Shown in pieces: positions 626 through 38,398 of a stretch of 64,000 nt of DNA. Source of the DNA: Amphiscolops sp. MND2022. Its lineage: Eukaryota. Location: assembly GCA_964187785.1 (NCBI GenBank), contig OZ076409.1:77254001-77318000 (forward strand), in the 5' to 3' direction. Position numbers and translations under genes: made by a program. Position 1 is the first letter of the stretch. Each line of letters opens with the position of its first letter. Under the pieces are notes generated by a model that was not told the DNA's origin, did not search any database, and saw only the letters and a list, made by a program, of their open reading frames with translations.

Positions 626-684
626 TGTCAGTATAACTGACATTTACCACAAATATTCGTGATCAGCCCATCAATTACCAAAGA

Positions 685-6277: not shown

Positions 6278-6303
6278 GCTACTTCCAATCAAAGAGGGGG
6301 GAA

Positions 6304-6498
6304 TGTGGCATAGCTGAATAAGCTAGAGGACAAACTTTATACTTTAGACACTATTATTCTTATTGTTATTTAATTAGTCTGAAGTACCTGCCTATACTGT
6401 ATCATCTTTATCATACTAAAGTTCGTTTAGTAACAATAGCTACGAGATAAAATACAGTCTTGAAAGAAAGTAAATTCTAATATCATAAAGTTACAACA
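6304..6498 (+). repeat. 3' LTR of the Mag-like Gypsy
   Basis: Direct repeat of 419-613, preceded by PPT AAAGAGGGGGGAA. Confidence 0.97.
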
Positions 6499-10521: not shown

Positions 10522-11643
10522 TGGTGACAGGAGCCAACCTCACCCCCCATATGGTTCCTGAGTTTCGCACTGGACGGCCCATGCAATCCCGTGAACCCCA
10601 GCAACGTCAAACCTCTAACGCAGACGAGTCTTTGGACCATAGCCCACAGGTCCAAGAACCTGCAGGCCGAACTACCCCTACAGACCCCCTCAACCGTCTT
10701 GCTGATGTATTAGTTGGCATGAACAACCGTCCATCAGCACAAACACTGATGGTACGCCCAGTCAGCACAACTACATTGACGTTCGACTGTAAATCAGAGA
10801 AATTCAATTTTTTTGAAGATCTCTTTCACACAATGATAAAAATGCTAACTGATATGACCGAAACAATGAAAATAAACCACCCTCATTCATTATTACGCAA
10901 GAACGCGTCAAAAACTTTCCGTAACATCAATACGGCAAACAGGCAAACTTTGGAAGACCTTCTGGCAGTATTTCGTCAAAAATACGTCAATCCCGAGTCC
11001 CAGGCGACCGCAAAACACAAATGGCACAAATTGGTGTTTGATCCAAACACCCTGAAATTGTTCGACTTCCTTGAGGAATTAAACCAAGGAGCTGAAAAAG
11101 CGTTTGGCGAGAACACCCAGGCAAAGATCGACAGTCTCCTATATGCCAAACTGCCGCCCAAATTGAAACGCTCAGTCAATATGGCCAGACTTGAGAACCC
11201 CACCGACGAGGAAATAGTCACCCATTTAGAACGTGAGCTTGAACTCAACGGACTTGAGGAGGGAGATGACAGTCCAGTACCAACAATGTCCACTGCCCCT
11301 ACAGCAACACGACCGGGAACTGGCCTTCTTTCTTCGGGTATAGATCCAAACATTACTTGCAACTATTGCAAGAAGCCCGGACATGTCAAGGACGACTGCC
11401 GAAAACTCAAAAAAGGAAGAAAAACGCTGCAATGACGGGCAGGATACCAAAAAAGAATGTCCAAAATGTCCAACTTGCGACAAAACGAACCATCCGGCGG
11501 AACGATGTTGGAAAGGCGATGGATTCCACCTCAAGCCCAGAAATTTTGAACTGGAGGACACCACAGTTGCCGATACGTCCACCAGTCAAGATGATGCCAA
11601 AAATAAACAAACGCTTTCAATCTTTAAAAATCCAAAAAACTAG
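9877..11643 (+). pseudogene. gag (starts inside the LTR), frameshifted
   Basis: ORF pieces 9877-10527, 10470-11435, 11383-11643. Capsid-like TFDCKSEKFNFFEDLF region; knuckles CNYCKKPGHVKDDC and CPTCDKTNHPAERC. Confidence 0.92.
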
Positions 11644-14600
11644 ATTTGCCACGACTCCAAATAAATGAAAAACTTCGTGTCAGACAATATACAATATCTG
11701 ATCCTTCGACCATATATTACACTGAGTAATATACAACTCTTAAAGAAACTTCATCAACTGACTGGCAGCAGCAGATGAAGACTTCACCTAACTTTTCCAC
11801 CACTTCGGACCCTACGTCCAACAGACTACAAAACGATACTTCGACTATACGACTTATACCGCTCATTGATGACTATAACCCATATTACCCTGACCCTGAC
11901 CATTGTTTTGACCCATATTGGGAGGCTAATTGCTACAATCAACATCATCTATACTTTTACACCAATTATAACAAACCAGATCAGGAGGTAGAGTCGGACT
12001 CTTCCGAAGTAGATGAAGACCTGAATACCGTCCTTGGCAATGCCCGAGTTGACCCATGGCAACATGGCGCACAACTCACTAATCACACGACCCACTCTGA
12101 AGCTGACAACGATTTTCACCGTGGGGGACCACAAGTCTCCCTAGCCTCAGCAGTCGCAGCACGTTTTGTCAACACACTAGTCACCAGAACTGGCGAACCA
12201 GATTATTTACCGCTGACGACCAATCTTGGCCTCAAATACAAATGACGAATGCTCTATTTTCCGATGGATTTCGGCGAACTAACTCTAGATGGCCTTGTAG
12301 ACACGGGAGCCCTATCTAGTGCAATCCCAGAAGCTGATCTACGTAAAATCCGACTATTAGCCCCTCAGTCTATTGTCAAAGAGGGCCCAACACCCAACTT
12401 CCAAATTATGGTTGCCAATGGGCAGCTGGAGACTCCGAAGAGCACCGTCGAGCTGAAGGTTGAAGTCGGCGACATAGAATTCCACGAGATATTCATAGTA
12501 ATGGAAAAACTCACTAGTCCATTGATTGGTCTTTCGTTCCTCCAACGGAACAACACCATCCGGGACATGAGACAAAGTTTCCTGAACTTCCCTTTCTTTT
12601 CGATGCAATTGAAAACTGCCGATCACAAGTATACTAACATTATGGAACCCATCTGCATTAGAGAGGATGTAACTATCCCACCTTAGGACCGACACTCGGT
12701 CAAGCTGGCCTCAAAACTGTACGAAGGCACTACAGTTACTGGGATCCTTCAACCGAGCAACACACTTACAGATGATGGCGAGATTGCCTTCTGTGCTGCT
12801 CTAGTCACTTTGACCAATGGTCAAGTATCGGTTCACCTGAACAACTTTACCTCAAAAGAGGTACACAAGTAGCCACTTTTACTGTCCTGACACCAGAACA
12901 GATGAAATATGTCAAACCCATAGATCCGGTGAAGACATGGCACCTCTTGCAGGATAACCCTGAGAATGCTGCCTACTACGCAAGCAGCTTGATCAAATCT
13001 ACAAAACCTGAGGACTTCAAGGAAAACTACTGGTTTCCTACACCAGAGGACCCTGGGGACCCTCAGCAACACACGCCAGTCCAGAAAAGGATTTTATCCG
13101 AACTAATTAATCTCCAAGAATTCGAGAAATTCAACCCTCAGGACGACCATGAGTCGCGCCGTCAGTTCCTGTCTAATTTTGACTGGACAGAATAGAATCT
13201 ATGCTACAACCCGCTGAATTCGCTTGCATAGAGGACTTAGTTGACGAATTTCACGACATATTCGCAAGACATCGATTTGACATAGGTATGAACGAGGAGT
13301 TCAAGGTCAAATTGACACCCAAAGAGAATTCCTCAGCCTATAGTCAGAGTTTGCCTACGCCAATCAACCTCAAGGAAGACAACCTCGTGGAATTAGCATT
13401 ACTACATCGCTAGGGATAATTAAAACACACCCATTCTCCAAATACGCAAGCCCAATTTTTGCCCAAAAGAAACCTAACGGCAAACTGCGACTGCTTGTCG
13501 ATTTGCGAAAAATCAATAACCTTATTTCCGACGATTATATAAATAACAATCACCCCGTGAGTACCCTCACAGATGCAGCCCAACACCCATGGCATGGCTG
13601 GCAAGAAGCTATTCTGCAAATTGGACTGCTCGCAAGCATATCATTGCTTACAGATGGCTGACAAGAGGTCAATCGACATGCTTGCTTTCAATTTCGCCAG
13701 CAGAACCGTCGCATACAGAAGATTGGCGCAAGGACTCAGCAGAGCCTTATCGGCCTTTTCGAGTTTTATGCGTGAATATTTGGACAAGGTCATCAAAGCA
13801 GACCAATGTGCCCAATTTGTTGATGATATTGGCATCGCTGTCAATAATGCCGAACAACTTATCAACAACCTGAGGGCCACATTTCAGTGCATTCAAAATG
13901 CTGGTCTCAAACTCACGATGCATAAATGCCACTAGCACTCAAACAACCCTTACCGAACAAGCAAATAGCCCTCATGACTGACGCTAGCCTTTAGGCCGCA
14001 GGGTATGCAGTTCTCATCGAAGATGATCCCCTCGAGAAATACACATCAACAAGGAAAACTTTCGCACCAGTAGCTTATGGATCCAAGACCTTTAGTCCTT
14101 TCCAACTGAAAATGTCTATCTATGCGAAGGAATTCTTGTCACTTTTCTTTGCCTTTAAGGATTTTGGACATATCTTTTGGGGAACCCCGAAACCGGTGAT
14201 TACACTTACCGACAATAAATCCGTCACACGATTTTTTCAAACGAAAATCATTCCACCGACACTATGGAATGCATGCGACTATGTCATTCAGTTCAATTTT
14301 ACAAATGCTCATATTCCAGATAAAAACAACACCGCTGTCGACTACTTGTCCCGTCTCGAAATCTCTCCAAAAGAAAAACTAATCCTCCGAATTAGAGAAG
14401 ATATTCCATCGACACCGATTGAACTACATGTCCAATCAGCAGGAGTGTCGGAGGAGGAACAAATCTTTTATAAGGAGGATGACGATGAGACTGAAGAACA
14501 AATTTTACAACGCAAAAGGAAATCTAGGGATCCAGGAATAAGCACCCAAAATGCTCATAGAAGTTCGACAAAAATATTACTATCCTGGCATTGCAAAATT

Positions 14601-16084
14601 TGTTAAAAATGGGTTCAACAATGCGAAATTTGTATAAAAGACAGAAGAATTCCAAACTCATCCATCACACCTGAATTGCTCAATCTGCTCGAATGGGACT
14701 TAGGTCCAGAAGACGCAATGCAAATCGATTTTTTACCAAACCTACCCCCCAGCGGAGGATACGAAAACATCATTACTGCAATAGACGTGTTTTCGCATTA
14801 TCTTTTTGCTTACCCAGTTACAGACGCTTCAGCCACGAACACGGCTAATGTCATTTTTGACATAATTACGAAACAGACCTACTTGCCTGCCACCTTGATC
14901 ACTAACAAAGGAACGGCCTTTACGTCCAAACTGGTGGCCGAAATTGCTCAAATTTCGGGAATTCAAGTGAATGGCGCAACTACAAAACACCCACAAATTA
15001 TTGGTAAACTCGAACGCACACACGCTAGCCTGAAAACGAACCTAAAAAGGGCCTCAGGGGACTACCGGCGACAATGGTTTATATATTTGCCTTTAGCCGT
15101 ATTAAACTATAATACGACCTACCACGCCACCTACCACGCTGTGAACCATCCAGAATCTTTCATGGACGAATCCCATATAATATATTAGATCACAAATTGG
15201 GCCTTAATCCAAACTCGAAGGTCTTTCCAACCACAGACTTTGCTGAGGAATTTCAATGACGCACGCAAGTACTACTCGATTCCACAAAGAAAAACATCAT
15301 GCAACCCTACTTGAAATACAAGGAGTATTACGACCGAAAGGCCAAAGCAGCCCTTTTGAGACAAAACGACTATTGTTTCATATTACAACCTATCGCTGGC
15401 CACCAAGGATCAAAAATCCCGTTTTGAGAATACAGATGGACAGGACCCTATATTGTAGAAAATGTCCTACCAAACGAAAATTATATAGTCAGAAAACTGA
15501 ATTCCAACAAAACGCAAATTCTACATCGTATTATATTGCGTAAATATGAGCCGAACACCGTCCTACAAGTCATCAGACCGGAAGACATTTTGCAACCGGA
15601 TGATGAAATTATTATTCCGCAAGACAACCTCTATGTTATCACTTGGGAAACCAATTTTGGAGAATTCCCCAATTCCACTGAAAATAACACAATTCCTACG
15701 AATCGAGATGCTCAAGACACTTCTAATGATTACGTCAATGATGACAGAGCGCCAAACGAAATTTTGGCCGACGTGGACTTTAGGTCCACTGGGCCTCACG
15801 AAAATGACGCCAGAGCGCCAGTCGAGTGTTTTACCGATGTGGACCTTACGTCCACCGGGCCTCACGAAAATGATGATTTTGATTCGCTTAAAGAAACCCG
15901 CTCAGAACGTACAGACCACAGGTTTGACGATCGACAATCGTCAGGAGGGAGAGATACTATCGTGCCCGAAGTATTAGATGATCAAAATGATGATGTGATG
16001 GTAGAAAATGATAGCTCTAGGGGAGGAAAATATAATCTTCGTCCTAGACCCACCCCCAACTTTACTGACGAATACAAATACTAG
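11640..16084 (+). pseudogene. pol (PR-RT-RH-IN), decayed, with two internal deletions
   Basis: LDGLVDTGA; LDCSQAYH, LAQGL, QFVDD; MTDAS, SIYAKEFL, TDNK; WVQQCEIC, QIDF..IDVFS, GKLERTH; ends KYNLRPRPTPNFTDEYKY*. Sequence is missing after ~13932 (RT thumb/connection) and ~14527 (before integrase). Confidence 0.95.
15767..15876 (+). repeat. Two 66-bp tandem units in the integrase tail
   Basis: ADVDFRSTGPHEND / TDVDLTSTGPHEND. Confidence 0.85.
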
Positions 16085-16254
16085 TCAAATCTTTAAATTA
16101 CTGTCCTGTTCTTGAGCAATAAAAATATCTTTTAGGGACCTGACTGACTTCTAAACGGAAAACTACGATAGACTTCAGACAACAAATGGAAAAAGATGAA
16201 TAAAAAACTGAATAAATAAAGGCTGTTTATCATGTGCAAGTATGTATTAGACAA

Positions 16255-19200
16255 TTAGAGCTTAGTGGGACTCCCAATCGAATGGCTGCTTCGTTCGATT
16301 GAACCCCCTCTCGACACTGATCGGCCCTGGCGCTTGCTAGCCTTTTTGTCCCAGGACTTTTCCGGCGACTTATCAGAACTCTGAGGATCAGCGCTAACAC
16401 ACATGGTGACTTTGCGCTGTTCAGTAGATTGGGAATTTATGCAGTCTTCAATAGCAGCGCGATTGAAACGATTGATCTTGTCCCAAGGACAGTAGGTACT
16501 ACTGAGCCCAGTACCACCAAATAATTTCTCCAGGACCAGAAAATGAGCGATAGATCCATCAGAGAAAAGAGTGTTCAGTCCGCGTGCGACATTTCCCAGA
16601 TAGGACTGAATAGGAGCAACAATGTCAAACAACACACTTTTGGGTTCGTCAGTCTTGTTGGAGCCAAATCTAACAGGTGCAAATGTAAACCTGGGTTCAT
16701 CGATGCAGAGACAGCTTAGACGGAAAATCCTTGACAGATATACTCGGGACTTTAATGCAGGTTGCTTGGACACGAAGTCAATGGTATCGGCTATTAGTAA
16801 CTTAGGTTGCTGCATCTCAGGTTGAGTGCGTCTCAACTCGTCAATGATGGAAAGGTACTCTTCAATGTAGATAGTTTCCTCTTCGGGCTGGAAGACACCT
16901 CTGAATCGGAAACTAGAGAACAGGTTCTTAAAGCAATACGCAGCTTGCTCCATTGTGTCCACAAACAGGGTCTCTAGGTCGAAGGAGCCTAACCCTTTGA
17001 CGATATCTGAAGTGAATCTGGTGAGTCCAGTAGCTGCTCCGAAAAGATGTGCCACATACCCACGAGCTTGTCGACCAAATTCCTCACGATTATTGGCGAT
17101 TATTTCTTCAAGGCTCAGTTCACTATTTCTGCTTCTTTTCGCTCCTTCTCGGATTTACGCTTGCACCAAGCATCCAGTCGGGGTCATAGTATTAAGCGGG
17201 ATATAAAATCACTGACTGATAGGGATTTTGAATCTGGGATGGAAATTCGGAGAATGTCATAATATCAGGTTCGGAAGGCAGGCAACTGGATCGAATGCAC
17301 CTCTGGGCAAGTTTGTGCAGATACTGGCAGAGCTCCTTGTGGACATGAAACCCTCGATCACGCCTCGTCTTCAGGTTAAGAATGAAACTGCTGGTATCTA
17401 AAAAATACAACAATGAACTCATGAAAACAGACAATTACCACAACACACGATATACCACTTACAATCGCAGAACAATCGACAGAACAAGTCCAATCGGCAA
17501 GGAAAGAGGTCATCATAGACTATGGACAATTCCAGATTCTGTGGCTGATATTGTTATGGATTTGAACTAAACTGGACTCGAGGTCATCTTAGCCATACAA
17601 TGACATTACTCATTACCTCGTTTCGGACTCCTTGCTTTTCTTGTTGTGGGGCATGCTTGGAGAGGTGCCCTACCACCTTCGACCAATTGTCAAGCAATTC
17701 CTGACAGAGCGCACGGAGTCCACTGACATCAAGCTGGCCTGTCCTGATGGCCTAAAACAAGATACCTAAACTAAGCTCAATAGCACAAAACCTCACATGG
17801 ATAGGTACGCTCACACTCCTGGAAACGACGAGTCACTGCTTGATGAAGTGGAGTTATTTACCTTGGTTAATTCTGGAGACAACAACACCCAGTCCAGCTC
17901 TGAGCTGCCCCTGAGGGAGATGACAAGGTAGCGCAGTACGGAGAAGAAGTCTTTACGTCCGAAGACACTCTGGCTCTTCTTGTGCATCAGGGTTGACAGG
18001 GTTAGCTCTTCGAAACGAGGAGTACTCTGTACTCCACATGGACTGTAAGGGCTCTGATCAACCAATTGCACTGTCCGGGCACTACTTCCAGTACATTTAA
18101 CTAGGCGTGGCTTAGTCGAGATGGCTCCAATGATGTACCAAATTAGGCACACTCCAGCTTGGGTCTGGCCCTGTACCCGTCCAGTCCGTTTGAGGAACAC
18201 TCGGCATAATTGATCACCGTGACAGAACCTGATAAATGACAGGAGGAAAACGCCGTCAGTAGCAAATTCTACTGCGTATTCGCCTGACGAATTGATCTGA
18301 CATTCGAGGTCATCAATAAATTCACGAAACATATGGTGAAACATGACCTAAACACAAATTCGATTGATTAGCCCCCGGAAATACTACGAGTACACAGCTT
18401 AACAGAGTGCGTAAGCGGATAAGATGAAATAATTGTGATTACTTACACTAATTCTTTCCTTCCCCCAGTTGAAATCCGTAAACAGGGCTTGGTGATTGAC
18501 TATGACTCCGACGTCACTCCAAAAGCTTTTCAGAACCTCAAGGCACCGTGAGTAGGAAGGAATTTGGCCAGTACGGGCAATTGGACTCGTGCACGATTAT
18601 CGGACGAAGAAGACATGTAATCCGTCCCAGCCATGAATTCATCATGAAAGGGAAGTTTTTGGCCAATTTCAACTAACGGAGCGTCTTTAAAGTAAGGCAA
18701 CTCCAATTCCAATTGATATGGTGAGAGTAGTTTACCATCTCCACCTCGGACTTGGTGGATTTTTGACTTGGTCACTGGGTCAACTTAGTAAAGGTACTCG
18801 TACCGCCACCTTTGGTCTTTACGTAAATGTTTTTCGGAGGAATGATGGCGCAAAAGTTTCCGTGCTCCCTCGCCATAAAGGGAGATGTTGGCGTTACAGA
18901 TCTGGCAGTAGAACTTGTAAGGATTCCACCTTGGGTCCACTGGACCTGAAACGAATGTTCGGGTCCATTCTATCCCTGAAGTAAGCTTCCTTCAATATCT
19001 TGCAAGACCTTGTGATCTGCCTGCGGGTCGCTGTGCCTCGGGAACTGGAACTGATTCTTCCACCCTGATTATTAGGAAGCTTGCCTTTGTGTTTAATTGC
19101 TTCGGCCTTCAAGGAAGCAAGGGTTTGGGCATCAAGACTGTCGGCAGCTGTTAATGATGTGCCGGCCCGACGGTCCGTATAGCTGCAGGACGCACCCTCG

Positions 19201-20571
19201 GAAGCTTTCGGCGGAGCAATTATCTCATCAGTTTCTGGCCTTTCGTAAGAGTAACCAATACTGGAGAACTCATCATCGCTCTGGAGGGCTCCGCTTGTGT
19301 CACTCAGTTGACCCAGTGTCGTGCTTCTAGACCTTTGACTCTGGCCGACTTATAAAGTCGCTGGGGTAGTCATGGTGCTAGCAGAGGCTTCTAAGGTGAG
19401 TCTCGTCGTTTTTTGGATAATGCCTTCTAACATGTCTTGGGAGGCCCTCACAGTCTCGTCAGCAACAATCTTAAGAAGGCTGCTCAATTGATCCTCAGTA
19501 AACGCAATAACTGGGTGTCCTTGGGGGAAATTGAAGGGTTCATTAGTCTGGAAGTGTTCTTTGATGAGCGCCCTGCTAGTAGGAAGTAAGACTTTGACCT
19601 CTAGGAACCCCAGGAAGGCCAACAGTGGTAAACGCACTTTCAGCGTCACTAGACTCAATGTTAAGCTGTCGGGACTTCAAGTCTAAAGCCTGAGCAATCG
19701 TAGAGCCAGCTGGGTTGAAAGAAGACTCGGCATCAGTTTCAACTACAGGTTCACTACTGCTAATAGTGACAGCCCGAACGTCTTTGTGACCTGTTTCGGC
19801 ATTTGAGTCCGTGTCAGCCTCTTCATCACTCATGGTACGAAATGGAGTAGGAGCTCTTTGTTTGGCTGGAGGATGACTCCATGAAAGGATGTACTCCCTT
19901 TTCTTGGTTGTTTGTTTGTACCCTGAGTACGTTTTGTTTCCGCTTGAGAGCTGGCGCCAAGCACTGGCCCAAGAAATGAGACTTTAGGTCCAGAGGGACC
20001 TTGTTCAGTCGGGCTCAATTGGAAGCTTGTGGAGGGAATCATCACGATAGGTTCACTCTCAATCGCTTTTACAGTGTTGTTTGCCCCCACTAAAGCCTCT
20101 TGTTTCGGTAAATCTTTTTCAACGCTCTCAGTTTTGCGGGTCGAATATGCCTGGACGCTTTCTCCTGAACTACTATTTCCAGACGCAAACGGATTGACTA
20201 GGGATGGAGTGTAATCCGGAGACGGTGGTCGAGGGGTTGGTTGACAAACTGTAGGAGTAGAAGAATCGACATTTTTTTGTAGAGGAATCTTGTTCAGATG
20301 AAGCCTGTAATCCACTTCCCTCAAGGATTTCTATGGCAGTGAGTAAAACACTAGGAGAAGTAGGAGGTGAAATTGTCTGTTTGGAGGAAGAAGCTGCTTC
20401 TCCCACGGTTGTGGGACTGCTGGTCTCCACAGCCTCATCAGGGCGTTGGGTCAAACTGTTATCTCTGATGCTTTCATTGTTCATAGACGCCTGGGTCGGT
20501 TGGCCGTTTGATTCAGTTCCTAAATGGAAAGGAATAATTTCGCGCGGTTCACTTCCTGCAAATGAATCCAT
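16255..20571 (-). pseudogene. Antisense intron-containing gene inside the Gypsy element: S/T/P-rich N-terminus, C2H2-type zinc finger, hAT-transposase-like body
   Basis: Minus-strand exons 20571-18447, 18347-17862, 17751-17463, 17397-16255. GT-AG introns 18446-18348, 17861-17752, 17462-17398 have matching phases (0, 0, 1). FYCQICNANISLYGEGARKLLRHHSSEKH at ~18913-18827. Several stops and frameshifts. Confidence 0.8.
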
Positions 20572-21725
20572 CTCGCCGCTTTTTAAAATCTTCCGGAAGT
20601 AGAGTTCAACTCATTCAATTTAGTTTGAAACATTTCACGACGGAGGAAGTACAATTAGTCGAACCTAAACCCTGATCAAGTTTAGTTAGACAAAATGAAA
20701 GAACCAACCTGATGTTATTTCCATGACGGAAAACATAATTGTTGTCCCGAACGTCGTTTGAAAATGTTGGGCTGAAGAATGTGCTCAAGGGGTTGACTCT
20801 GTCCTTTTGAAGGCTCGTGATAATCTGTGACTGATCAGTGTGTCTGCTCAGCTGTGTGGTTCTCAGAAATAAAAATCCCTTGATGGGTAGAATTACAAGT
20901 TGAGGTGACAATCAACTCGAGTGTAGAGAATGAAAAGGGGCGGAAGAATACTGGATCACAGACACAGAACATACATTATAATATAATAACATTACTTACA
21001 CTTCCTGACCTCACTAGACTTAGAGACAATGTACACGAAGTACAAAACGCAAGACGGTTAATTACTTACCTGGCGAATGAACGTCGTGGCCTATTAAGTA
21101 GTTCTTTTATCTACAATTATGTACAACTTATCACATGTACCCTTAGTGTTATTATTTAATCAAGATCTGTTTCATCATGGATTGAAACTGCCAGTGAAAT
21201 TCATGTCTTTATTTCATCTTAGGGATTAGTTCATTTCGTAAATTAGTGTTAGTTTAACTGAAATAGCCATTCTCTTGGCTTTCGTCAATTTTTTTTGTTC
21301 TTTTCTCTGCGACACCTCATTGGTTACTTCAGTTGATGTAGCCGTGCGGACTGAAGGTCTTTGATGGTGAATTTATTTACCGGCAGTTAACTTGAGTTAA
21401 CACTTATTACACCTATTCACTGCCATCAAGTAGTTATTTAAACAGCTAGAAAGTCCTTCAAGAACCTTTTAACATCAAGTTTACCTTAGTTATCATTCCG
21501 GGAAATTGGGTAAATTCTACATTTAAGGAATGTTTGGTAAAGATTTAGGAAAGATCAGAAACTGTTTCCCCGCTGGGGAACTCCCGCGAAAACGGGAAGA
21601 CTGGCAGCCCAAGTATCTCGAGGAGAAATCATTCATCACAGTTTGAAAAGTGTAAAACAGTCGAGTAAAGAAACCTCAAAATTGCGAAGAAAGTCTTTCT
21701 TAGGAGATTTCAAAACAAAATGTAA

Positions 21726-22536
21726 ATGAATCTACCGTTCTATCTAGACGATCTCTCAGCGCTTCCAGTCAGTCCTAGTCACTACTCTTCTGATGAAGAA
21801 ATGGATGTGGACACCCAGTTAGTCACTGCTACCAAAGACGACTCCGAAGATAGCGATATAGGAATGATCGCGTGTTACCGGCAAGACCAATTCAGCCAGA
21901 TGGACTAGTCGCAGGACGCAAAATGACTGTGGAGATACCAAAAAGTGCTGGGGGAAACTTACCCCGATTGTCCCTAGGAGAATTTTGGTAGCATGATGCA
22001 ATTGGTGGACAGCCAGGCTGATCCGCTGGATATGGGAGCGGGGCCAAGTACAACTACCCAAAGCAGTAGTCCGCCCATAAGGTATTGTGGTAAACTAACG
22101 CCATTAGTTGACACGCCCCTATCTCCTCCACCACACGAGCGTGGTCCAAGTCACAGCAATTGTGACTACACAACGACAATGCAGACTCGGATGCCGCTCC
22201 GACCGAATTCTCATATACAAGCACTGAGTGTCCGCAAAGCGTCACAATGTGGACAGCCAAATCAAGCTCAATATGGTGACTGCATAGTTTGCGGAAGGAG
22301 TTATGAACAAATAAAGGAAACTGCTGCTTGGATACTTAGAATCTTCTACTTATCGTGGAGAAGGTTACAACGATCAACAAAGAAGACGTAATGCTTATTT
22401 AGCTGGAATGGACCAAGGGACAGTACTCTTTATCCCTAGGGGAGTGTCGCACGCTGCCGCCTGTGACTGTAACCTCTACCAAATCACATTGGAAGGAGAC
22501 AACTCTAACCCACCCCCAGGAGTGCTCCCCATTTAA
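21726..22536 (+). pseudogene. Sense accessory ORF of unknown function running across the PPT into the 3' LTR
   Basis: Pieces 21726-21908 and 21993-22391, then a shifted frame GYLESSTYRGEGYNDQQRRRNAYLAGMDQGTVLFIPRGVSHAAACDCNLYQITLEGDNSNPPPGVLPI* ending at 22536. Includes CIVCGRSY. Confidence 0.7.
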
Positions 22537-25500
22537 AGACTGACAAGGACAAAAAGTAATGTAAACTACATGTATTTTGTTGTTATTTTTATTACTTTGA
22601 ATTTCACCATAAAAGACCCATGGTCCATACGGCCTCAGTGCAATAAATAATTTTAGTTTACAAGGCTGTATTTAATCGTTTAGTAAATCGTCCTGTGCCT
22701 GTTTTATTGTTGAAATGTTAATGCAATTTGGCAATTAGTATGTAAAATCAATGAATTAATACAATGCAATTGTATGCGGAAGAGGAAACGCGTTCAAATG
22801 AACGTTTCTTCTAGCTTATTGTATTCGCTGTACAAGTAATAAAGTCCAATCAGAATGTAGTACATTAGTGTAGTTCCGTGGAGAGAATGTCTGCCACGGT
22901 GGAACTAGCGTGCGAGTGCCGCTAGTGCTGTAATTGAGTGTGGCTACGCGAACTTAAAATCCGCTACAGTGAAGTATTATGTTAACATGAAATTACATAT
23001 TCTGGACGCATGTAGTATTGTAGATTAGTATTGAAAGTACATACAGGGCACTGTAAACGTTTTCCTACTTTGTCGGCCTAACCGCCAAAGCCCCCATCCT
23101 TCTCTTTGATGCAATGACGTCATAGTGACGTACCCTAACATGATGCTTTTTTTAGTTTACCATTTCTATATTTAGTAACATGACCCGCAATTTTTGTGTT
23201 GTCACCTCCTGCCAACTATAAATAGGGAGGGCGCAGCACCAAAGGGACAATCTTTTAGAAACACGAATTGCAAACAAGTTGCTAAATCTGACCAGTTGAA
23301 TCTGATATTGTGCTTGTCTTACCCAGTTCTTTCATTTGTACTACTCGTTCTCCAATTCAATATTGCTTATAGTGGTATTTCTTCAATGCCTTCTACAAGA
23401 AAGCAAAAAGCTAAGGAAAGACGCTCTAGACAGTTAGACATTATGTCTGATGGAGAAAATGTTGATGTAAGGTTAGGAAATTACTCAAGGAATGATGAGA
23501 AAAACGACCATAGTGAAAATGAAATAAATTTGGACTCAGAGTCAAGTAGACCACAACGAACCTCTAATGTAACTGGCGAAGACTTTAGGTCACTACTCAC
23601 GAACAGTAGAGAAAACAGTGAGATTACTATTGGTACTACTAGAATGATAAACGAAGAAATTTCCAACCAAATGTCTAGGAGACTCAATGAGATGAAAACC
23701 AGCTTAAAATCTCAGATACAAAATGCAATCACTGTTGCAATAGCTGACACTGTGCTTCCTTCTATACAGAATGCATTAGAGATGCAGGGGAGATCAAATT
23801 TAACCGTAGTGGACCGAGCGTCCAACGGGCTACATCCTGGCCCAAGGACAGCAATTGTCACTGTCATGGACATTTTGGTTAGGAAAATCACTGTTTAGAT
23901 GGTCCTCATTCTGTCCATTTCTCTGGTTGCCTTTTGCGTTCATGTTTCGCTGAACTTCGAAAATTGGTTCCGGTCTCTCAGACGGAACGTCACATCCCTT
24001 TCTGGTCCAGTGTCTTGATCCGGCCATAATGACATTTTGAATCTGTGGAAGTACTTGAGTACTTATTGCATCACTTATGGCTTTTTGTATTTGGACACTC
24101 ACAGAGTTCATCATCTCGTCCATCTCTCGTGAAATACGAGAATTTAATTCACTCGACAGTCTATAAATCTCAGCACTAGAGTTAGCCGTAGCTGAATTGC
24201 GGTCAAACTCGGCATTAATACCGGCGTTGGTAGTTCTCTGCTTTCTACCCACATTCTCATCTCCATTTTCGGGTTCATTACTAGCGAAACTTCTGGATCT
24301 CCTAGGCAAATTGCTATTTAAACTGCCTTCCCTCTCTCTCGTGTCAAAGTGGTTCTCACCTAACATGATATCTAAGTTCTCGATATCAGACAACATTTCG
24401 AGTCCTCTCGACTTTCTAGCTTTCTTTTGCTTTCTAGTGGTAGGCATTGAAACGAACCTGGTCAAATATTAAATTATTTAACACCAGGAAACAGTCTTTT
24501 GTAGAAAGTTTGTAAGAGAAGGCTATTTTTACAAACTGAGCTTGAGGAGCAAAACAAAGATTGTGTCTGCTCAAGGAAGTAGCTCCTATATATACTTCCT
24601 TGGGCGGGATATTTAGGATACAAATACTCAGAAAATGTGACAATAACATTCCGAAAGCGCCTGATATACATATTTGTGTGGACATCTAAGTGCCGCCGAA
24701 ATGTGGTTGGAAAGGTCACGCGACCGTTCAAATTCTTTCACTCACAACACAAGCAAACATTTGAAAGGTGCGAGACACATCAAACAGGGTATCAAGCCAC
24801 AAGCATCTGAGGAATGTCAACAATTCCGTGTCGGCACGTGCCTACACAAGTGGACTGTTCTGGTAAATAACTAATACAACTGCATATTACTGCACATGTC
24901 TATTATACCTAATACTGCCACAACTCATACAAATCAACTGGACAAATCAGCTAAATCAGTCTATAAGACTGTCATCTAAAACTACAACATGAATCGTTCT
25001 TAATCGCGTCGAATAATTTAGAGAGGCAGATATTAGTTTCTGGCATGAACACAGCAGCACATGACATTAAAAGCATAAGGGTACATACATCACTCTAATT
25101 CGACACTCGAATAGCCGGCTTCAAAAGTAGCCGAAACCGGCCACTATCCATCTGGTCTTACTAACAGAAAATAATAATCCGGCAAATGGCCTTATTCGAC
25201 CAATTATTAAAATAAAGTGTGAAACTGCAAAAATGGGTATTTAATCAACATGAAAGGCACAATTACCTAATTATCAATCAAGTACATGAATGTTAGGCAA
25301 TTTATAACTCGCAAGCGCAAGACGCTCGGAACCGGCCATTTGACCAAAGTACTAGACGATAAAAGCAGAATTACGTCACGTGGCCTAAACCGTCCAATTG
25401 GTGAATACAATAATAGCACCGCCACATGAGCAAACATGATTGGTCAGCATAACGAGCTCAAGTGACGTTTCCGAAATTGGAGTTACGTTCACTTGAACTC

Positions 25501-25989
25501 CTCTCCTTTACGCTGCATAGCTGTTTCAATTGCTTCAATTGTTTACATTGTTATACTGCATTTTCAAATTTGATAATCACAAGCATCTCATCTTAATTTC
25601 TCAATTGTTGGCCTTAACAGACTAATACTAATACAAATATGTACAAAACGAAAAAATGAATAACTTCAATGAATGCAACACATAAAATGATGAAACGTAA
25701 AAGTTTAGGGTTTTTGATTACTTTCCTCTAGTAGATGGGTAAGGTGCCGACAGCTGTCTCTTGTCCCTCCGCCGTTGTCGTGATTTTTGTACCGTCACAG
25801 GCGGCAGCCTGCGACATTCACCGTGGAGGACCAAAGGTTTCATTGGGCGACAACGAAACTCCGAAGCAGCAGAAAATGCCCAGAAAACGTGGGAAAATCG
25901 TCCTAAAAGGTGTTTTACACAGGAAAATAGTAGACAAATGTCTAGAGAGGGTTCAGCCGACTCTTATAATGGCGAACAAAATCGCGACA
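22445..25989 (+). repeat. 3' LTR (about 1585 bp), interrupted by a sister-family solo LTR
   Basis: Matches the 5' LTR and contains the gag N-terminal ORF from ATG 23386. It resumes at ~25817 and ends CGCGACA at 25989, followed by the TSD. Confidence 0.93.
23862..25816 (-). mobile_element. Solo LTR (1955 bp) of a related Gypsy family
   Basis: On the minus strand it starts TGTCGCAGGCTGCCGCCTGTGACGG and ends CCATGACA. TSD GTCAC/TTCAC, TATA near 24590. ORF MPTTRKQKKARKSR (ATG 24447) is homologous to MPSTRKQKAKERRSR and open to the LTR end. Confidence 0.9.
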
Positions 25990-28900
25990 AGAACTTTTTG
26001 GGTCAGCTCGTGTGCATTGAAAAAAGTCATTTTTATAGTCGCCGACTAAAAAGGTGAAAAAGAGCGTGCTCATTCCAAGTTATATTGCAAGTTAGCAAAC
26101 TAGAAAACGGAAAGTCAGGCTAAGAGAGGCATCTAACGTTGTGGAGAGGTTGTTACAGAGACTTGACGGCAAAATCAAAGAAGTTTACATGGTTCTGAAT
26201 CACTTTGAAATAAGACTTGCGCTTGCTATCCCAAGCCTCAGAACGACTGTTGCAACGTCAGTTTACTGATACAGCAACAACGGAAGGGATCCCTAGTAGC
26301 TCAACTGTCTATAAAGTATGAAGTATATGCCTATTCCTGTTTGTATATCGCTCGGTGCATATTTAGAAAGGGATGAATTTGAATGGAGACAGCGTTTTAG
26401 ATAGAATTTCAGTCCTTTAAGAAAACAAACAATTTGCATATCTTGAAAGTTTGAGAGTGAAGAGTACGATAAGTGGAGAGTTGAGTTTCCCGTTAACTTT
26501 TCATAGGAAACCTCAATTCATTGGAAAAGAATATGTTCTTCTTTCCGAAGGCGTTTACATGAAAATCGAAATACGGAATGAGGAAAACACTGCGTAGCGC
26601 ATGAAAAAATTTACACATTGGGCACTATCACACTGTTGTGACCAGTTTTGATCAAACGTTTTGAGGTCCCAGTTGGCAGTCGACACAGTTGGCGCTCGAC
26701 ACCTAAATTAATGATCAAGTAATTTTCTATTCATGAAATGCCACGTCATCTTGACGAAAGGCCCGTGAATGAAAGGTGACAAATGAGAGCAAATGATTGG
26801 CTGATTATAATCAGGCTGACTGGCCCACCGAAGGGGTTTTACTTAGCACAGTGCTCTATGGGCGAGGATTTTCAGATAAAAACCAAGAAATATTAGAGGT
26901 GAGTTTTATAATCCAATAAAATGAATCATCTCTCCAAAAAACAACAAATTATAAAATAACGAAAGATTGTTGACAATTTGGTAAATTTTGCAGGTGTTTT
27001 TTCTTTTCTTACAATTGGTTTTATCATCTATATAAAACCAAGTCTTTTCAAAAATAATTCCTTTCACCACGGTGTGAGAAATTTTTATCACGAAATTCAA
27101 AAGCAAAAAGTCAATCTCTTTATAGAAGCCACACTCCGTGATTTTTATTCAACCTCATGGTGAAACGGCAAACAAAAGATTGCTTTGATTGGATTTTATC
27201 CAAACATGCAATTGTTCCGTATCTTCAGTATTCGAAATGTCAAACCAGACTCAACCGACCGCTTTGTCCAGAATAATTCTTCAGGTCCAAAATATGTTTG
27301 CGGTTTTTGTTTATTGAATGATTTTATCGTATATGGTTTGACGGCCTTCTAAATACAAAACCGCTTTTGATTTTTTTGACCAGCCCTTTTTGCGATGAAA
27401 AGTGTTTGTGATTTAATTCGTATGATAAATTGATGCTTACTTTGAAAGGCATCGAAATTACATCAATCTTTCTTACTTCAAGAATGGCCTAAATTGGATG
27501 AGAAACCAATGAGCGTGATAAGTGGCTGAATTGTGACCAATGTTTTAAGCACGCTTTGTTGGTATGAACACTTTAAACTTGGTATTGAAAATAATTTAAA
27601 CGTCAAAAAAATCAAAAGACGTTTTTCAAAAAGCTATACCTTGAAGCTAATTTCATTGCAGTTTCTTTTTTCTTTAGTTTATATATTTGATTGATTCGTT
27701 ATTGCAATTGAAAAATTACAAGTACAAAGTTATAAACGGACGAGTTCTGCAAATGACCAGATACATGCCGTCATTATGATGGATGGTCCAAAGAGTGTTG
27801 GTTTTGATGCAGAGCCAGGGTTTCTGGAGCAAGCAGCTCGAAATCGATGTCAGCTTATTCAGTCAATGGCCCGGAAAGTGAGTGAAATCAATTTCCACTG
27901 TAGAATGCTGAAAATGTAAACAAAGTTGTTACTAGTTGAAAAACCAGTCCTATATTGGTATCTCGACATTTGTTCGTTTTGCTATCACACTTGGGGACTA
28001 GAGAACAAACTATCATTCTTAGAACTAAAGAATTCCATTATGTTCGTCTTTCGACTCGCGGTATTTTGACCTGCCACAAATCGAAGTATCCAAATGAAAA
28101 AAATTCTCAAGGATTGATGATATATTTTCCTATAGGCCCCAGGTCTTATAAATAGTGAACAAACAAAAACATTCAAAAGCGATTTATGCTTTTACGGTTG
28201 TCCAAAAATTTAGCATAGCGGTATGAAACAGTCAAATTTGGATAGAGATAAAACAGTCGATTGCTGAAACGGGCTGTCTCTTTGTACCCAGGGTGACCCT
28301 CACAGCTCGATCACGCCTATCGTAGTAAGATAGGCAGTGAGATTGGAGCAAGACTTCATATTACGAAAAACATGTCTTCCAAGGTTTCGCTTAAATTAAC
28401 CCTAAATAGCATAGCGGTACTTTAAAGGAGCATACATTTTTTTCAACTTCTGTTTCGTTTTGTCATTCGGCCATGTTCTTTAACGCAGTTGCTATTTAAC
28501 AATTTGTTGGTACTGTGTTTGATCTGCGGCGAAAGCATTAGGAAAAGAGAATTTTTCTCCGAACCTCAGAAAAATGGGCTTTTTTGCTGAAAAAATAATT
28601 ATACTTTTTCAAAATTCCCTTTCTGGCAAAATCCAATTTTCTCGAAAGTACTTGACCAATAAAGAGAAACAAACCCATACGCTTTCACAGAAGACCTTGA
28701 GCAACAAAACTAAATAATATGCTGTTGTTACTACAAACCACGCGCAGCATGTGGCACCAAGTGTACCGGAAAAGGAAAGTGAAATTTTGGGGAATGGGAA
28801 GCGCAATACAGGTGCTCACTTAACCAAATCAGACCTTGAAACGTGCTGTACTTAATTTTCTGGTATGCCTAGTTGTGGAGATATTAGCAATTAAATTTTT

Positions 28901-29691: not shown

Positions 29692-30042
29692 TTTTTAGTC
29701 GGCGCTTCATGAAGGGAAACGCGACTATGATACTGACTCTTTTTTATTCAATCCAAACGACCTGACCAAACAAGTTCTACAAAAGTTCTACAAAACGTTA
29801 AGGTGTCAAATTCGACCATCTGGCTTAGCGAACTGAACCGAAAAGGTTTTCCTTTTTGTTCCGCGTAACATACAGTACCGGGCTAGACTAAAGGGTTTCT
29901 TTCAGTTTTTCGGCACTGAGACTTTTTTCAAAAATTTGTTTCCTCAAAGGGCCCCCTTCAATTATTTTGATGTTTGGCGACAGAATGGATGTTGAAAAAT
30001 TCCACAGGGTCCCCCTTTTAGTTATTTTCGGCATTGTGAGAC
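29692..30042 (+). mobile_element. Helentron/DINE-1-like element, 5' part (continues at ~37591-37775)
   Basis: TTTTTAGTCGGCGC...CGCGACT head hairpin and AAAGGG-CCCC/CGGCATTGTGAGAC internal units. Similar to the copy at 58190-58610. Confidence 0.7.
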
Positions 30043-30966
30043 TGTTGCAGCCTCAAACCATGTCAAAAAAATTGAAGGAAAAATAGGTCGAGTTAGCTAT
30101 TTTCAAAATGCTGTAAGAAAGTGTGGAATTGGATTTGAGGGCTGGTATTCCTTCCTCCGTCAAATTTTGACCCAAATGAGAAATCTAGACCATAAAACGA
30201 AAATCAGAGCTGAAAAAATTTTTAAATCTTGTATTCTGGGTAATTTTTGATCGTTTTTTCATAGTCAGTGAATATTTGGACCTAATTCTTTGTTTATTGT
30301 ACTTAAATGGTTATGAACGCCATATTTGGGCTACGTGGGTGTTCCTAGGACCCACGAGGACTGCTTGAGAACTTCGCTAATCATTTAATAGCAATAAAAA
30401 AATGCAAATCTATGCCTTAATCTTGCTGAATTGTATGCTTTTCATATATACCTTTATATATTTTGGTGCCTATTTACAACTCAGATAAGTAATTTGTATC
30501 AACCTGCTCTACATGTCAAGGCGCTTTTACGGTCAAAGTAAATTTAACTAGAAACATCTATTATGGAGTGTTTCCTGTATGCTAAAGTAACAACCAGAGT
30601 TAACTTCTACAAAAAACGCACAACCAAATAGAGATTCAAACAGGTCGACTTTGACGACAATGAAAGCTTGGAAGTTTCTCGTGCACTTAATTCTGTTAAC
30701 TCTGGTTATTGAAGAGCTTTATCAGAGTTGAGCAAGTGATATTATATTGTTTCGAAAATCCAACGTCAATTTACTTATATTGCATATGATTGCGATGTTT
30801 TCGCTTGAGGAAGTTATCGTAGACGCAAGGATTTGGACTTATTGTTTGGTCTAGCAGATCAATAACGCTGCCCATCATCGCGACATCTGAGTTGATTCCT
30901 ATAGTCACAGTTTAGAATTTGAAACTTACTTCATGTTTGTGAAACAGAATAAGTACAAAATCAAAG

Positions 30967-31560
30967 ATGCAGCAATTGCTTGACCGACTTCGGAAACCTA
31001 TTCAAAGTAACTCTAGCCGAAATTTGATTGAAGATAGATGCGATATCATCTATTCAAAATTTCAAAAAGCTAGAAACCTAATAATTTCGGATAGCCTAGG
31101 AATAGGGCTCGATATTGCCAAGTTTAACGTTTTAATCACTGCCCGGAGCTAAAAGAGAACACGTTTACTAATTTATACCCAAAAGAGATCTTTATTATAT
31201 CATCGTCCTATTTATAGGCGGTAACAATCTTATTTCTACCACGTCAGAAACCTTACTTCGATAGATATCCGATCTTGCAACTCGTTTATTAGCCAAAGCC
31301 AAAAACGTTTTCGTGCTTGGTATACCTCTACGCCGGTTTCAACGTTATCAAGCAAAAGAAGTTAATTCTTTAATAGCTTCTTGTCAAGAAGTCTCGAAAT
31401 TCAGAGGAACATCTAGGCAAGTGTTTAGCATTAAGCACTTGAACAAGGATAAAGTTCATTTGAACTCCTCCGCATTCAGTAAAATCAGCTATACTCTGAA
31501 AAGCAAGACACTTTACCAGAGATATTGTTCAGCAGTTGAAAAGGAAGGACATCTCCTAGT
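30967..31560 (+). pseudogene. SGNH/GDSL esterase-like ORF upstream of the BEL PBS
   Basis: Blocks in canonical order: LIISDSL, SLPGA, IVLFIGGNNL, VFVLGIP, DKVHLN. One frameshift (~31135) and two stops. The end coordinate is approximate. Confidence 0.78.
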
Positions 31561-31779
31561 TATTGGGTGTACCGGATTTTGCAAGTACCTTTCCTGGACA
31601 AATCAGTTTTGGTATTGTCCGCAAATTCTCAACCAAGCCATCGTGAAGCTTGGTAAGTGTTTTGGTCAGCTTGCTTTGCAGACGTAAAATTTCGGTGCCG
31701 CGACCCGGGAAAGCACTCTGTATATTTAGCCTAACTATTGTGACTTTCACTTATCTGACTGTTGCAGTAAGGCGACAAA

Positions 31780-34700
31780 ATGGCTGAAGGTGGGCTTTAG
31801 GAGCCTCATTATATGATCGTGTGAATGAAAAATGGAACAGAAAAAAGTCCCATTTTCGACCTCGCTGAAAAACTCATCCACGTTGAAAGACTGGATTGAT
31901 CATGAAAAACGAGTTTTTGAAATTGTTACGGCCATTAGAATTATTGAAAATGATTTTCAAAATTCGAAGTCTAAGAATCCAGTCCCTTGGACCGATGTGA
32001 TCAAGTTTCGTTTTAAATGTTGGGCGTCTTAGGATGAATTAAAGAAAAAATTCGAACTCTATCTCCTGATGTTGAAAAAAAACAACAACGCAAACGTGAA
32101 GAAGCTCTTACGAAATTCATTTTAGAATTCAGGGGGCGATTCAGAAAATGGGTTGGAAACCACAACAATCTTGGTTATATTGCCACGCTTTCGTAGAGGT
32201 TAAAAGATGAGAGAGACTTACTCAAGTTTTGTAAGTTCATAGACAAGTCCGCTAAATTGAAACGGAATTTGTCTCGTGAAACAGATACTATTAACAACTT
32301 GATGCAACAAGACGAAATGTCAAGGTAAATGAAATCATCCTTTCAAAAACTCCAAGAAACGAAAGCGAATCTGAAGCTGGATAGAGCTTACGAAAATGCT
32401 TGTGGTCCGCTGAAAGATGGGTTGGAGGGAATTTTCTCTCAGTAAGACATTCCAGTGACATCACACGATCATGAAGACAGTCAGACACGAATTTTCCGCA
32501 CTAGTGCAGACGATACGCTGGAAAAGAGTCTGAAACTGCTGAGAGATGTTAACCAATCCACCGTGTTGGACAAAATTGTGAATCTTACGGAAGTTGCTCC
32601 TCGAAAGCAACTTTGAGTACATTGAAGAAACGTTCACTAGTGGACCTCTCTTACGGAAGTTGCTCCTCGAAAGCAACTTTGAGTACATTGAAGAAACGTT
32701 CACTAGTGGACCTCTCACATTCAAGAACTTTGTCAAAAGATGATGTCTACAAACCTCGGGGCTCACAAATGGATTTCAATTTGTCAAGGGTAAATGAACG
32801 ACGACGCTTGGAGTTGCATGCTAAGTTTTTAGAGCAAAAGTGTCAAGTAGAGTATGAGAAAAAGCACCGATACCTAAAGTTGGAAAAAATAGAGAAAATG
32901 AAGTGCAGACGAACCAAATTGTCTTAGATTTACAAGTGGAAGCAGGTATGGAAAGCAGAAAAGCGCTTTAGCAGCAAGGAATGCGACTGCGTATAGAAAA
33001 GGCTGATGGGTCATTCCATGCTTCATCAATTTGTCCCAGTTTAATGACTTTTGCATTTGAAGAAGACAAAAACAGATATTAAAAATTGGTTGGAACAAAC
33101 TGATGAGAATTTTGCAAAGGGCTTCTTCCGACCGAAGGAGTCTAGTAGAGAATGGAAAACAAAGAGTGGTCAAGTAGACTGCCTCAGAGATTTCAAATAT
33201 ATTCTCATTTGAAAAGTCAACCCTGCCATCGCATTCTCAAAGCCGAGGTACGAGTAAATCACCTCAGAGAAAAATCACTGGAAATATTTTTCTAAAAACA
33301 AAACCTTCACTCCAGTAGGGCAATGACGAATCGAAGCCTTGACAGGGAAAATTGTCGTCCTTCTTTTTCCCCAGCAGTACCTGTACAGCAGCCTGTACAT
33401 TTTGTTCAAACAAGTTTACCTAAGGTAAAATGATCTGAATTTCATGGAAATTCATTGCAATGGACAGAATGTTCCAGTTTGTTCACAGCTGCCATCCATA
33501 ATGCGACATTTAATGCCAATGCAAAATGAGTCATTTTAAAACACTCTTTAAAGATAAAACCAAGGCAGCTATTGCTTGGCTTGGATACTCAGGAATGACG
33601 TTGAGTGTTTTGGTTACAAATTTCGGACGTCCACAACAAATTTTTAATGCGCAGATGAAGCATACCCTTTTGAGTCCGTTCATCATGTCGCAAGACGCAG
33701 CGGCTGTTAAAAAGTATTTTCAGTTGTTTGGAAACAATTTGGTGTCACTGGAGATCTGTATTCAGAATCAGTTACCTCCTGAGCTGAAACAGAATGGTGC
33801 AGATGTTTTCAAGTTTAGTGAGTGGCATAATGAAGTTGCCTATGTGCAGGATGAAATGATGGCGCAATCAAAACACAATTTGACGAAAGAACGTCTGGAT
33901 TGACAGAAAAGGTAAAGATTTCAACATTCGCTGCTAAGCACCTAGGTACACCAACATCACCTTCCACTAAACAATGTCCATTGAAAGATGGCGAACATAA
34001 AATTTGGATGCGCAACAAGCCGCCAACGTTGAAGAAACTGGAACAGTGCTTCTGTTGCCTTAATACCCAGCTTATTAAAGACTGCAAATCAGAACGTGTT
34101 TGTGAGGTGAATGGTTGCACTAAGAAACACAACAGCCTTCTACACTATGATGCTCAGAAAATTGATAAGGACACCAAGGACAAGAAAACAGAAAACCCAG
34201 CGTCTCAATCAGGGCCGGCAGCTCTTCTTTGATGTCTACAGGAAACAACGAGTTCTTACAGTTGATTCATATTTCGATACTTTAAAACTCAAATCGTAAC
34301 AGTCAAAGTTGGTTCAAGCGATGCAGAAACTCCTTGCGAGAATGTAACGTTGTTTTGTCACCCTAACTCAAATGTTGGTGGAAGGACCATGACAAAAACT
34401 AAAACAAGATTGCAAATATTTATCTGATTTGTCTAACATTAGTGTCTCTTTGACTGACGTTAAAGTCATTCTCGGTCAGGATGCCTATGATTTGATCAGG
34501 CCGCTGGAATACAAGTCTAGCGTTCGAAGTCAACCATGGGCAGTTAAAACAGCACTGGGTTGGACCATTAGCGAAGCTGTCAAAAAACGAAACCAGTATC
34601 GGTTTCTGGCAACTCTTCGGTTGCAACTGACCCATTGGCGAATCAGATGAAAAAATGGTGGGACATGGAGACAAATGAGTCCGTGTGTACATCCGCAGAA

Positions 34701-37590: not shown

Positions 37591-38398
37591 AGACCATTTT
37601 TTTTGAAAAACATGGTTTTCGCCAGAGGGTCCCCCTTCAGTTTTCTGGTGTTTTGCAACAATGGATGTTTGAAAATCCGAAAGGTCCCCTGGCGCGCCAC
37701 TTTGCTCCAACTTTTGCGTTTTTCAGGCACTATAAAAGAATAATTGACACTTTGAAGTGCTTTTGCTAATTTTCGGCTTTTGGTAAGAACTGGTAATTTG
37801 AATTCTTCTGACGTCTCTCGCATTACACAGGAATGAACACCTATCGGAGCATTTGGACTTCCTCATCGGAAATTGTGTCTTTAAAATCAGAGTCACCGAG
37901 AATCGGCAAACAATTCTGTTATCATTTGATTTTTTCTATTGTTATTTTTGGTATTCCTGTGCGGTATTCCTGGTAGATGACGACGTTCTGCTTGCAAGAT
38001 ATGGTATAAGAAGTTCGAAAGGAAAACAAATTTAGTGTGAACATCGTTTGAATATCGTTTCAAAGTGATATATTTGAATCCCATAAGAATTCAAATGACA
38101 ATAGGTTTGATGAAGGCATAGTTGACTATGATTATAGCGAAACGGTTAGGACTTTTGAGGCATTTTGCAAGGCAGGGGTTATACAAAATTGATTTTTATA
38201 CAAAAAGCCTTCTACGAATCATTTTTGATCACTAAAACAATAAGCTTTGTGAACAATAACGTTTGTGACATAAGCGTTCCAGTCATAAACGTCTCAGGAA
38301 TTGAGGTGAAAAGTCAGAACCAAACAGTCAAAACGCGAATGTCGATAGCACATTCAAAAAGGACAAGTGAGAGCTTTCAGTTCGTTTTTCATAGCAGT

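Follow-up and report, generated by a model that had tools for sequence, protein, structure and literature searches.

Does a reading frame that crosses the polypurine tract (PPT) position of a retroelement and ends inside U3 of its 3' LTR encode a genuine protein, and what might such a protein do? An earlier note on the window, meaning the whole 64,000-nucleotide stretch of DNA analyzed here, described one such frame at 21726-22536, likened its arrangement to lentiviral nef, and took peptide similarity among sister LTRs as a sign that the protein is real. In certain acoels, LTR retrotransposons account for about half of the genome (PMC9911081). An accessory protein that is under selection and carries a SIM-like motif may bear on how these elements stay mobile in the face of silencing by an animal host.

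A decayed copy of a conserved accessory gene

The carrier of the frame is a Ty3/Gypsy LTR retrotransposon, as established by its TG...CA LTRs, target duplication, tRNA primer site, and Gypsy order of pol domains, which Pfam places as PR-RT-RH-IN at 12246-15188 (Table 1). The 5' and 3' LTRs of this element, a member of family A, are separated by a K2P distance of 0.069. A tRNA 3'-end pattern that matches the primer site occurs 962 times in the genome compared with 0 times for a control, and ARAGORN called tRNA-Leu(CAG) at one of the four loci tested for this match. Among the 962 matches is a dense tandem array that begins at about 35587000 of G000:C8. The gag ATG is positioned within the LTR (at 9192 in the window, with a duplicate at 9877 and another instance at 23386), and about 220 gag codons are located inside the LTR, as they are in families B and C. 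Because gag starts inside the LTR, protein-coding sequence is present at both LTR ends. It is the gag-coding part of the 3' LTR into which a family B solo LTR has been inserted, on the opposite strand.

Table 1. Features of the accessory gene, its element, and neighboring solo LTRs in the window
Feature	Position	Strand	Remarks
Accessory ORF (272 codons in open copies), pseudogene here	21720-22536	+	ATG at 21720, stop at 22534-22536
SIM-like motif region	21849-21878	+	DSDIGMIACY here; DSDIEVIACY in open copies (acidic run and hXhh)
CxxC, then predicted helical hairpin (residues about 188-233)	22281-22420	+	CIVC at 22281-22292
Purine run AGGGGAG at PPT position	22438-22444	+	Codons P-R-G-V
U3 coding part, 92 nt (last 30 codons and stop)	22445-22536	+	First 24 nt are LTR end and hairpin; includes conserved C249
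Ty3/Gypsy LTR element, whole, decayed	8250-25989	+	Target duplication AGAAC at 8245-8249 and 25990-25994
5' LTR	8250-10521	+	Opens with 10-bp hairpin; carries 685-bp tandem duplication inside
Primer binding site TGGTGACAGGAG	10522-10533	+	Complements 3' end of host tRNA
gag (zinc knuckle) and pol, fragmented	9192-16084	+	Pfam matches
Minus-strand accessory frames, broken here	16255-20610	-	Finger-like C-x2-C...H-H motif; head to head with plus-strand accessory ORF
Spacer, noncoding, about 1.1 kb	20611-21719		Putative two-way internal promoter
3' LTR in two parts	22445-23861 and 25817-25989	+	Interrupted by family B solo LTR
Solo LTR, sister family B	23862-25816 (with flanks 23857-25821)	-	Flanks GTCAC/TTCAC
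Solo LTR, family C	38399-40551	-	Full elements have ORF ending in U3

Other repeats share the window with this element. A second Gypsy-type element, with RT, RNase H, and integrase matches, is present at 418-6499 and is bounded by 197-bp repeats (99% identical) at 418-614 and 6303-6499. Another decayed element occupies about 31000-38000, with an integrase match at 36622-37020. Dispersed repeats of one family, each headed by a tRNA-like GTTCGA and containing short internal repeats, are found at 53450-58650, 43290-43850, and 29700-30090, and a 374-codon frame with no Pfam match is located at 48182-49306 on the plus strand.

When the accessory region is translated, the peptide described earlier can be recovered, with IPRG ahead of the LTR boundary and VSHAAACDCNLYQITLEGDNSNPPPGVLPI plus a stop codon after it, and the frame does cross the purine run and the LTR start. 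The interval 21726-22536 is not a single open frame in the window. Translation from the ATG is interrupted by in-frame stop codons at 21723 and 21975, and the frame shifts near 21882, 21949, and 22326, which puts the CIVC motif and the tail in different frames. What the window preserves is a decayed pseudogene of a conserved accessory gene.

The earlier readings of the 5' LTR and of the minus-strand solo LTRs at 25816 and 40551 were likewise reproduced, and differ in what they can contribute. The 5' LTR match is not independent evidence because this is the same LTR, 93% identical. The SQAAACD peptide shared by the tails is present, but it is encoded by a 24-nt LTR end that is constrained as DNA too and that translates as SQAAACD on both strands. 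This peptide, on which the earlier inference had been based, was its weakest part. Similarly, the solo LTR at 40551 does stay open for 35 codons, but the chance of this from local composition is about 0.08.

Sister copies permit the frame to be rebuilt, which the earlier note had proposed as a check. Of 393 candidates from a DNA search for family A, 40 were scored and 30 loci were fetched, and nine of these 30 carry a single open accessory frame encoding about 272-275 aa. Other families have homologues of 262-285 aa with about 30-40% identity. One of them is family B, to which the 25816 solo LTR belongs; full family B elements carry a 262-aa homologue (about 28% identical), the tail of which is encoded by the first 89 nt of the LTR. 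Two more families encode proteins of 273 aa (76 scored genome matches) and 279 aa (139 scored genome matches), and open accessory frames exist in at least five families. In each homologous family the LTR boundary splits the same Val or Leu codon behind its first base, and the coding LTR stretch measures 86-95 nt in typical copies. A profile search returned 667 cluster representatives at E<=0.001, and among the members read for 10 of these clusters none has a name. The protein P0070 has no match in this genome at E<=1e-60, which is only a hint of other host genomes.

Codon-level selection can also be recognized. The other five frames of the ORF region contain 5-19 stops each, and between family A subfamilies dN/dS is 0.12-0.14, with most changes at third positions. 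When pS and pN were compared for five nonoverlapping sequence pairs, the values were 0.57 and 0.12 for the codons before the LTR, 0.22 and 0.01 for LTR codons 1-9, and 0.66 and 0.11 for LTR codons 10 onward (p 5e-20). The tail of one exceptional pair (L233/L234) has changes at none of 16 synonymous sites versus two of 47 nonsynonymous sites. Given open natural copies and selection that continues past the hairpin, the earlier proposal of a real protein whose tail is encoded in U3 is supported, and the accessory gene is almost certainly real.

The further claim that this tail is conserved in sister LTRs holds for the family of the 25816 solo LTR, but not for that of the 40551 solo LTR (hhalign 0.4%, in-LTR pN 0.31-0.40). 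Full elements of this latter family, family C (L172, L192, and kin), carry in the same slot and phase a Ser/Pro-rich ORF of 210-212 aa that also ends in U3. It is open at 205-215 aa in 13 of 30 loci and is under selection before the LTR, with a pS of 0.35 and a pN of 0.06. Its tail is weakly conserved, and the tail lengths found at 30 LTR loci range between 17 and 48 codons. Comparison of this ORF with the accessory family gave an hhalign probability of 0.38% (E 0.16), with no CxxC and no SQAAACDG tail, and its own unnamed family (210-216 aa) includes 51 database proteins. From these comparisons, family C appears to share the layout with the accessory family, but not the protein.

Constraint at the LTR end

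The low pS of LTR codons 1-9 indicates that the first 24-27 nt are kept both as DNA and as protein. Might the peptide likeness be a by-product of a conserved LTR end and its hairpin, with no protein being made? Several observations fit such an explanation: the first 24 nt are constrained as DNA (pS 0.22), the 5' LTR hairpin folds strongly (z -4.6 as RNA and -6.0 as DNA), and the window copy is broken. However, selection acts on 242 codons before the hairpin and 21 codons after it, and the frame has stayed open across families, which leaves this explanation scarcely credible. Because purifying selection persists in U3 past the hairpin, where the similarity continues, the tail is not explained by the hairpin alone, and a by-product lacking any protein is ruled out. 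Judged by codon-level patterns, the first 24-27 nt of the LTR are under a double constraint, on the DNA and on the protein, and the remaining tail codons are constrained at the protein level. Among nine distinct LTR starts, the hairpin has one-sided changes and mismatches, and the inner stem is broken in family E, which demonstrates constraint on the DNA only, rather than a functional hairpin. The 92-nt overlap would nevertheless represent a clean triple use of DNA, serving as integration end, hairpin, and codons.

The overlap also bears on plus-strand priming. The PPT of LTR retrotransposons is a purine-rich segment of 8-49 nt upstream of the 3' LTR (PMC7264820). At this position, family A has the 7-nt AGGGGAG, and family B has purines at 5-6 of 13 nt. 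The family B copies L157, L036, and L128 read cacccgc(a/t)g and then TG, with no purine tract ahead of the 3' LTR. The two LTRs of one family B copy are nevertheless 99.7% identical, and a 5-bp target duplication flanks that copy. Judged from these sequences, family B appears to move without a purine tract, and a literature search returned nothing close to plus-strand priming of this kind.

Such features raise the possibility that the protein has a role in reverse transcription or integration, for example by assisting plus-strand priming in elements with a weak PPT or none, or by directing the integration complex toward chromatin rich in SUMO. In favor of this, the PPT position falls within the gene, and the purine-poor family B has nonetheless produced the nearly identical LTRs and target duplication mentioned above. 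However, overlap at the DNA level is uninformative regarding the site at which a protein acts, no fusion to Gag or Pol was seen in the copies read, and family C has the same layout with another protein. Overall, we consider such a role distinctly improbable.

Protein anatomy and a candidate SUMO-binding motif

The profile searches and structure prediction that the earlier note had called for leave the protein unnamed. No Pfam family was matched at E<=1 by P0001 or by the family B protein, a 110-row profile against PDB sequences gave a best E of 3.5, and the ESM Atlas yielded no usable match for the whole protein or its C-terminal part. Foldseek found nothing at E<=0.001 in PDB or BFVD, and a wide VIA-align search reached a best Z of 4.4 with helix pairs only, from a partly low-confidence model. 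These searches do not imply a novel fold. The full-length model is poor (mean pLDDT 43.5). Its N half, which is acidic with a net charge of -21 over the first 100 residues, is poorly modeled, and the last 100 residues have a net charge of -4. A helical hairpin at residues 195-233 is confidently predicted in a second model (pLDDT 89-96), and the region of C249 has low pLDDT and no confident placement.

Conserved islands in the alignment include a Cys near residue 123, H165 (kept in 69 of 98 rows), the CxxCG segment, and a tail that reads G-x-x-x-F-x-P-x-G-V-S-Q-A-A-A-C-D-G...Y...LP. The Cys residues C188, C191, and C249 are kept in 97 of 107, 101 of 109, and 101 of 109 rows, respectively, whereas no other copy shares the second Cys of the "CDC" seen in the window. 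With this pattern of conservation, zinc binding by C188, C191, C249, and H165 is plausible. The motif [ST]PxSP is present in 52 of the 58 near-full-length proteins (1.5 in shuffles), and five of the 58 have YSPxSP, which is like the Pol II CTD. A transmembrane segment (19-residue hydropathy >=1.6) is absent from 56 of the 58, no RING or ligase domain was found, and a nuclear localization signal is not clear in family A; family B has PSKKQRK.

N-terminal myristoylation at Gly2 is a hallmark of Nef. By the hallmarks tested, the accessory protein appears unrelated to Nef or Env. The position of the gene, its acidic clusters, and its Pro-rich motif might still suggest a Nef-like adaptor that rewires host trafficking or signaling at membranes. 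This is very improbable for a protein family that lacks Gly2 in 55 of 58 members, a Nef family match, and a membrane anchor.

A different hint is provided by the N half. The SIM consensus is a hydrophobic core of the form hXhh or hhXh with an acidic or phospho-Ser flank (PMC8616421). A SIM-like core with an acidic flank is present in 48 of the 58 near-full-length proteins (mean 8.6 and maximum 18 in shuffles). On a tree of 47 rows, 11 carry hhXh-Ser-Ser-acidic near the start, 28 carry acidic-hXhh about 25 residues further on, one carries both, and seven carry neither, with both motif types having been defined after the alignment was seen. The seven rows that fail the strict pattern mostly have single changes in the motif or truncations. 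The hhXh-S-S-acidic form, found in one lineage group, is PML-like, and from its distribution the switch between the two types may have been a single event.

Complex prediction was applied to residues 21-62 paired with a SUMO that matches the first exon of the host gene at 98% identity. Among named sequences, the host SUMO is closest to those of Convolutriloba and Symsagittifera (83% and 80%), which makes an acoel worm the likely host. The complex scored 0.36 against 0.01 for the best of three controls, runs agreed in at least 90% of contacts, and partner pLDDT was at least 52. In calibration, the mark was reached by 51 of 78 solved pairs and 2 of 108 mismatched pairs, and scores of 0.60 or under included five of the 78 solved pairs and all four passing mismatches. 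The prediction lends weak support to SUMO binding.

There are several reasons for caution. First, 0.36 is barely over the mark, with a tool that lacks validation on peptides or disordered chains, and the pass may reflect likeness to SUMO-SIM complexes that are already solved. Furthermore, acidic disordered regions often contain matches to so short a pattern as the SIM (8.6 of 58 expected by chance). In family A the A-C-Y that follows the motif is as conserved as the core, more than would be required of a SIM, and its homologous counterpart elsewhere resembles M-A-x-C-V-E; thus, the motif may be some other binding element. Finally, an unrelated protein fills the slot in family C.

With these points in mind, we tentatively favor, at somewhat less than even confidence, the reading that this is a conserved accessory gene of a Ty3/Gypsy clade, with its last 30 codons in U3, whose product is a nuclear regulator with weakly predicted SUMO binding that counters silencing or raises transcription of the element. 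Its transcript would begin at an internal promoter in the 1.1-kb spacer and end in the 3' LTR. An initiator-like TCATTC is present at 21629-21634, 91 nt upstream of the ATG, and TCA[GT]T[CT] occurs 70-97 nt upstream in 8 of 10 copies examined; no 6-mers are shared in the 150 nt upstream among five families. Closer to the ATG, at a distance of 21-42 nt, 7 of the 10 copies have a motif like AA[AG]AT[AT]GC (about 21678-21692 in the window), a possible 5' UTR or core-promoter element; none of these seven belongs to family C.

Once made, the protein might use its acidic SIM-like motif to bind SUMOylated chromatin factors, with binding tuned by phosphorylation of the neighboring Ser residues and of [ST]PxSP. 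The C-terminal domain (C188, C191, C249, and perhaps H165 or C123), stabilized by a metal or a partner, would act as an oligomerization or docking module. The protein would thereby compete with SIM-dependent recruitment of an H3K9 methyltransferase, and it could be targeted to the element by the head-to-head minus-strand finger protein. Precedents for parts of this scheme have been described: SetDB1/Wde is recruited by SUMO-SIM contacts in piRNA silencing (10.1101/533091), and the viral SIM proteins K-bZIP and ICP0 activate or desilence viral genomes (PMC8616421).

Outside the window copy, the minus-strand frames are 385-410 aa long and reach a maximum of 689 aa. Families A and B have them arranged head to head with the accessory ORF, with about 1 kb between that contains no long ORFs. 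The N half of the accessory protein has, we presume, a resemblance to activation domains. A plain acidic transactivator, resembling Tas, Tax, or E1A in its logic, would use its acidic-hydrophobic N half for activation and its Cys-helix domain for docking to a partner already bound to DNA, for which the minus-strand finger protein is a candidate, with no part played by SUMO. The negative charge of the first 100 residues, an amphipathic acidic helix at residues 87-97 (FPWEDFDSMMQLV), and the head-to-head layout are all in keeping with this. However, the 87-97 helix is poorly kept across families while the SIM-like and SPxSP motifs are retained, and there is the weak SUMO complex pass to consider. 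We regard such a transactivator as rather unlikely.

The helical hairpin prompts consideration of a Rev- or CERV-like factor, which would use it together with a short Arg cluster to bind element RNA and aid export or processing. The helix-loop-helix is predicted with confidence, and residues R223 and R224 are basic in 104 of 110 and 103 of 110 rows. CERV offers a precedent, as an LTR retrotransposon accessory protein that is nuclear and regulated by phosphorylation (PMC10309623). However, the cluster amounts to no more than two or three basic residues in a protein that is strongly acidic and remains negatively charged in its last 100 residues, so that an RNA-binding role of this type is improbable.

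If the reading as a SUMO-binding regulator is extended, these elements might define an env-less animal Gypsy clade with a two-gene, head-to-head counter-silencing cassette, in which a minus-strand DNA-binding finger protein is paired with a plus-strand SUMO-binding effector whose metal ligand is encoded in the LTR end. The layout would be independent of nef, and coding constraint would have replaced the polypurine tract in one family. This larger scenario is doubtful. If true, the cassette would be a transposon-encoded antagonist of SUMO-dependent silencing, and a SIM-like protein present in multiple families offers a direct and cheap test for retrotransposon attack on the SUMO step of silencing.

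Comparison with known accessory genes

Extra ORFs between pol and the 3' LTR are already known, as is overlap of the PPT and U3 by nef. In the literature covered (mostly main texts of open literature), no description was encountered of a selected, env-unrelated, unnamed ORF family that runs into U3 of a Gypsy element.

In lentiviruses, nef extends over the PPT and the att site and into the beginning of U3 in the 3' LTR (PMC11076291). The earlier comparison with nef stands as far as this position is concerned, with an accessory gene that crosses the PPT and overlaps U3. It does not extend to the protein, which has no Nef sequence or family match and has Gly2 in only 3 of 58 cases, nor to the setting, which is a 92-nt overlap in a Gypsy element without env.

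Closer parallels in gene order are provided by the extra sense ORFs between pol and the 3' LTR, including the env-like aORF-3S of plants (PMC7264820) and the ORF3s of rotifers (GDSL, DEDDy, and TM; PMC5408684). Like these, the gene described here is a conserved post-pol gene that is kept in most copies, in a slot whose content is family-specific. It differs in having no TM segment or enzyme domain and in its antisense gene placed head to head. Running into the LTR is seen here and is not described for plant aORF-3S or rotifer ORF3s in the portions of those sources that were available.

Antisense accessory genes with their own internal promoter are represented by Grande gene23, whose product is nuclear, and by other aORF-3R (PMC7264820). 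The element examined here has antisense frames too, but the accessory ORF itself runs in the sense direction on the other side of the spacer. Among animal LTR retrotransposons, Cer1 of C. elegans is comparable in that it encodes CERV, a novel accessory protein that is located in the nucleus and regulated by phosphorylation, properties that are proposed for the protein here. CERV is made from a spliced mRNA and exports genomic RNA (PMC10309623), and no homology between the two surfaced in searches.

Finally, KSHV K-bZIP, HSV-1 ICP0, and the phospho-SIMs of host PML and Daxx have the same combination of a hydrophobic core and a Ser/acidic flank (PMC8616421). They have nothing but this motif in common with the accessory protein, which has no RING or bZIP. 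The logic proposed to be common to them and to the retrotransposon protein would be that of acting on SUMO-based silencing.
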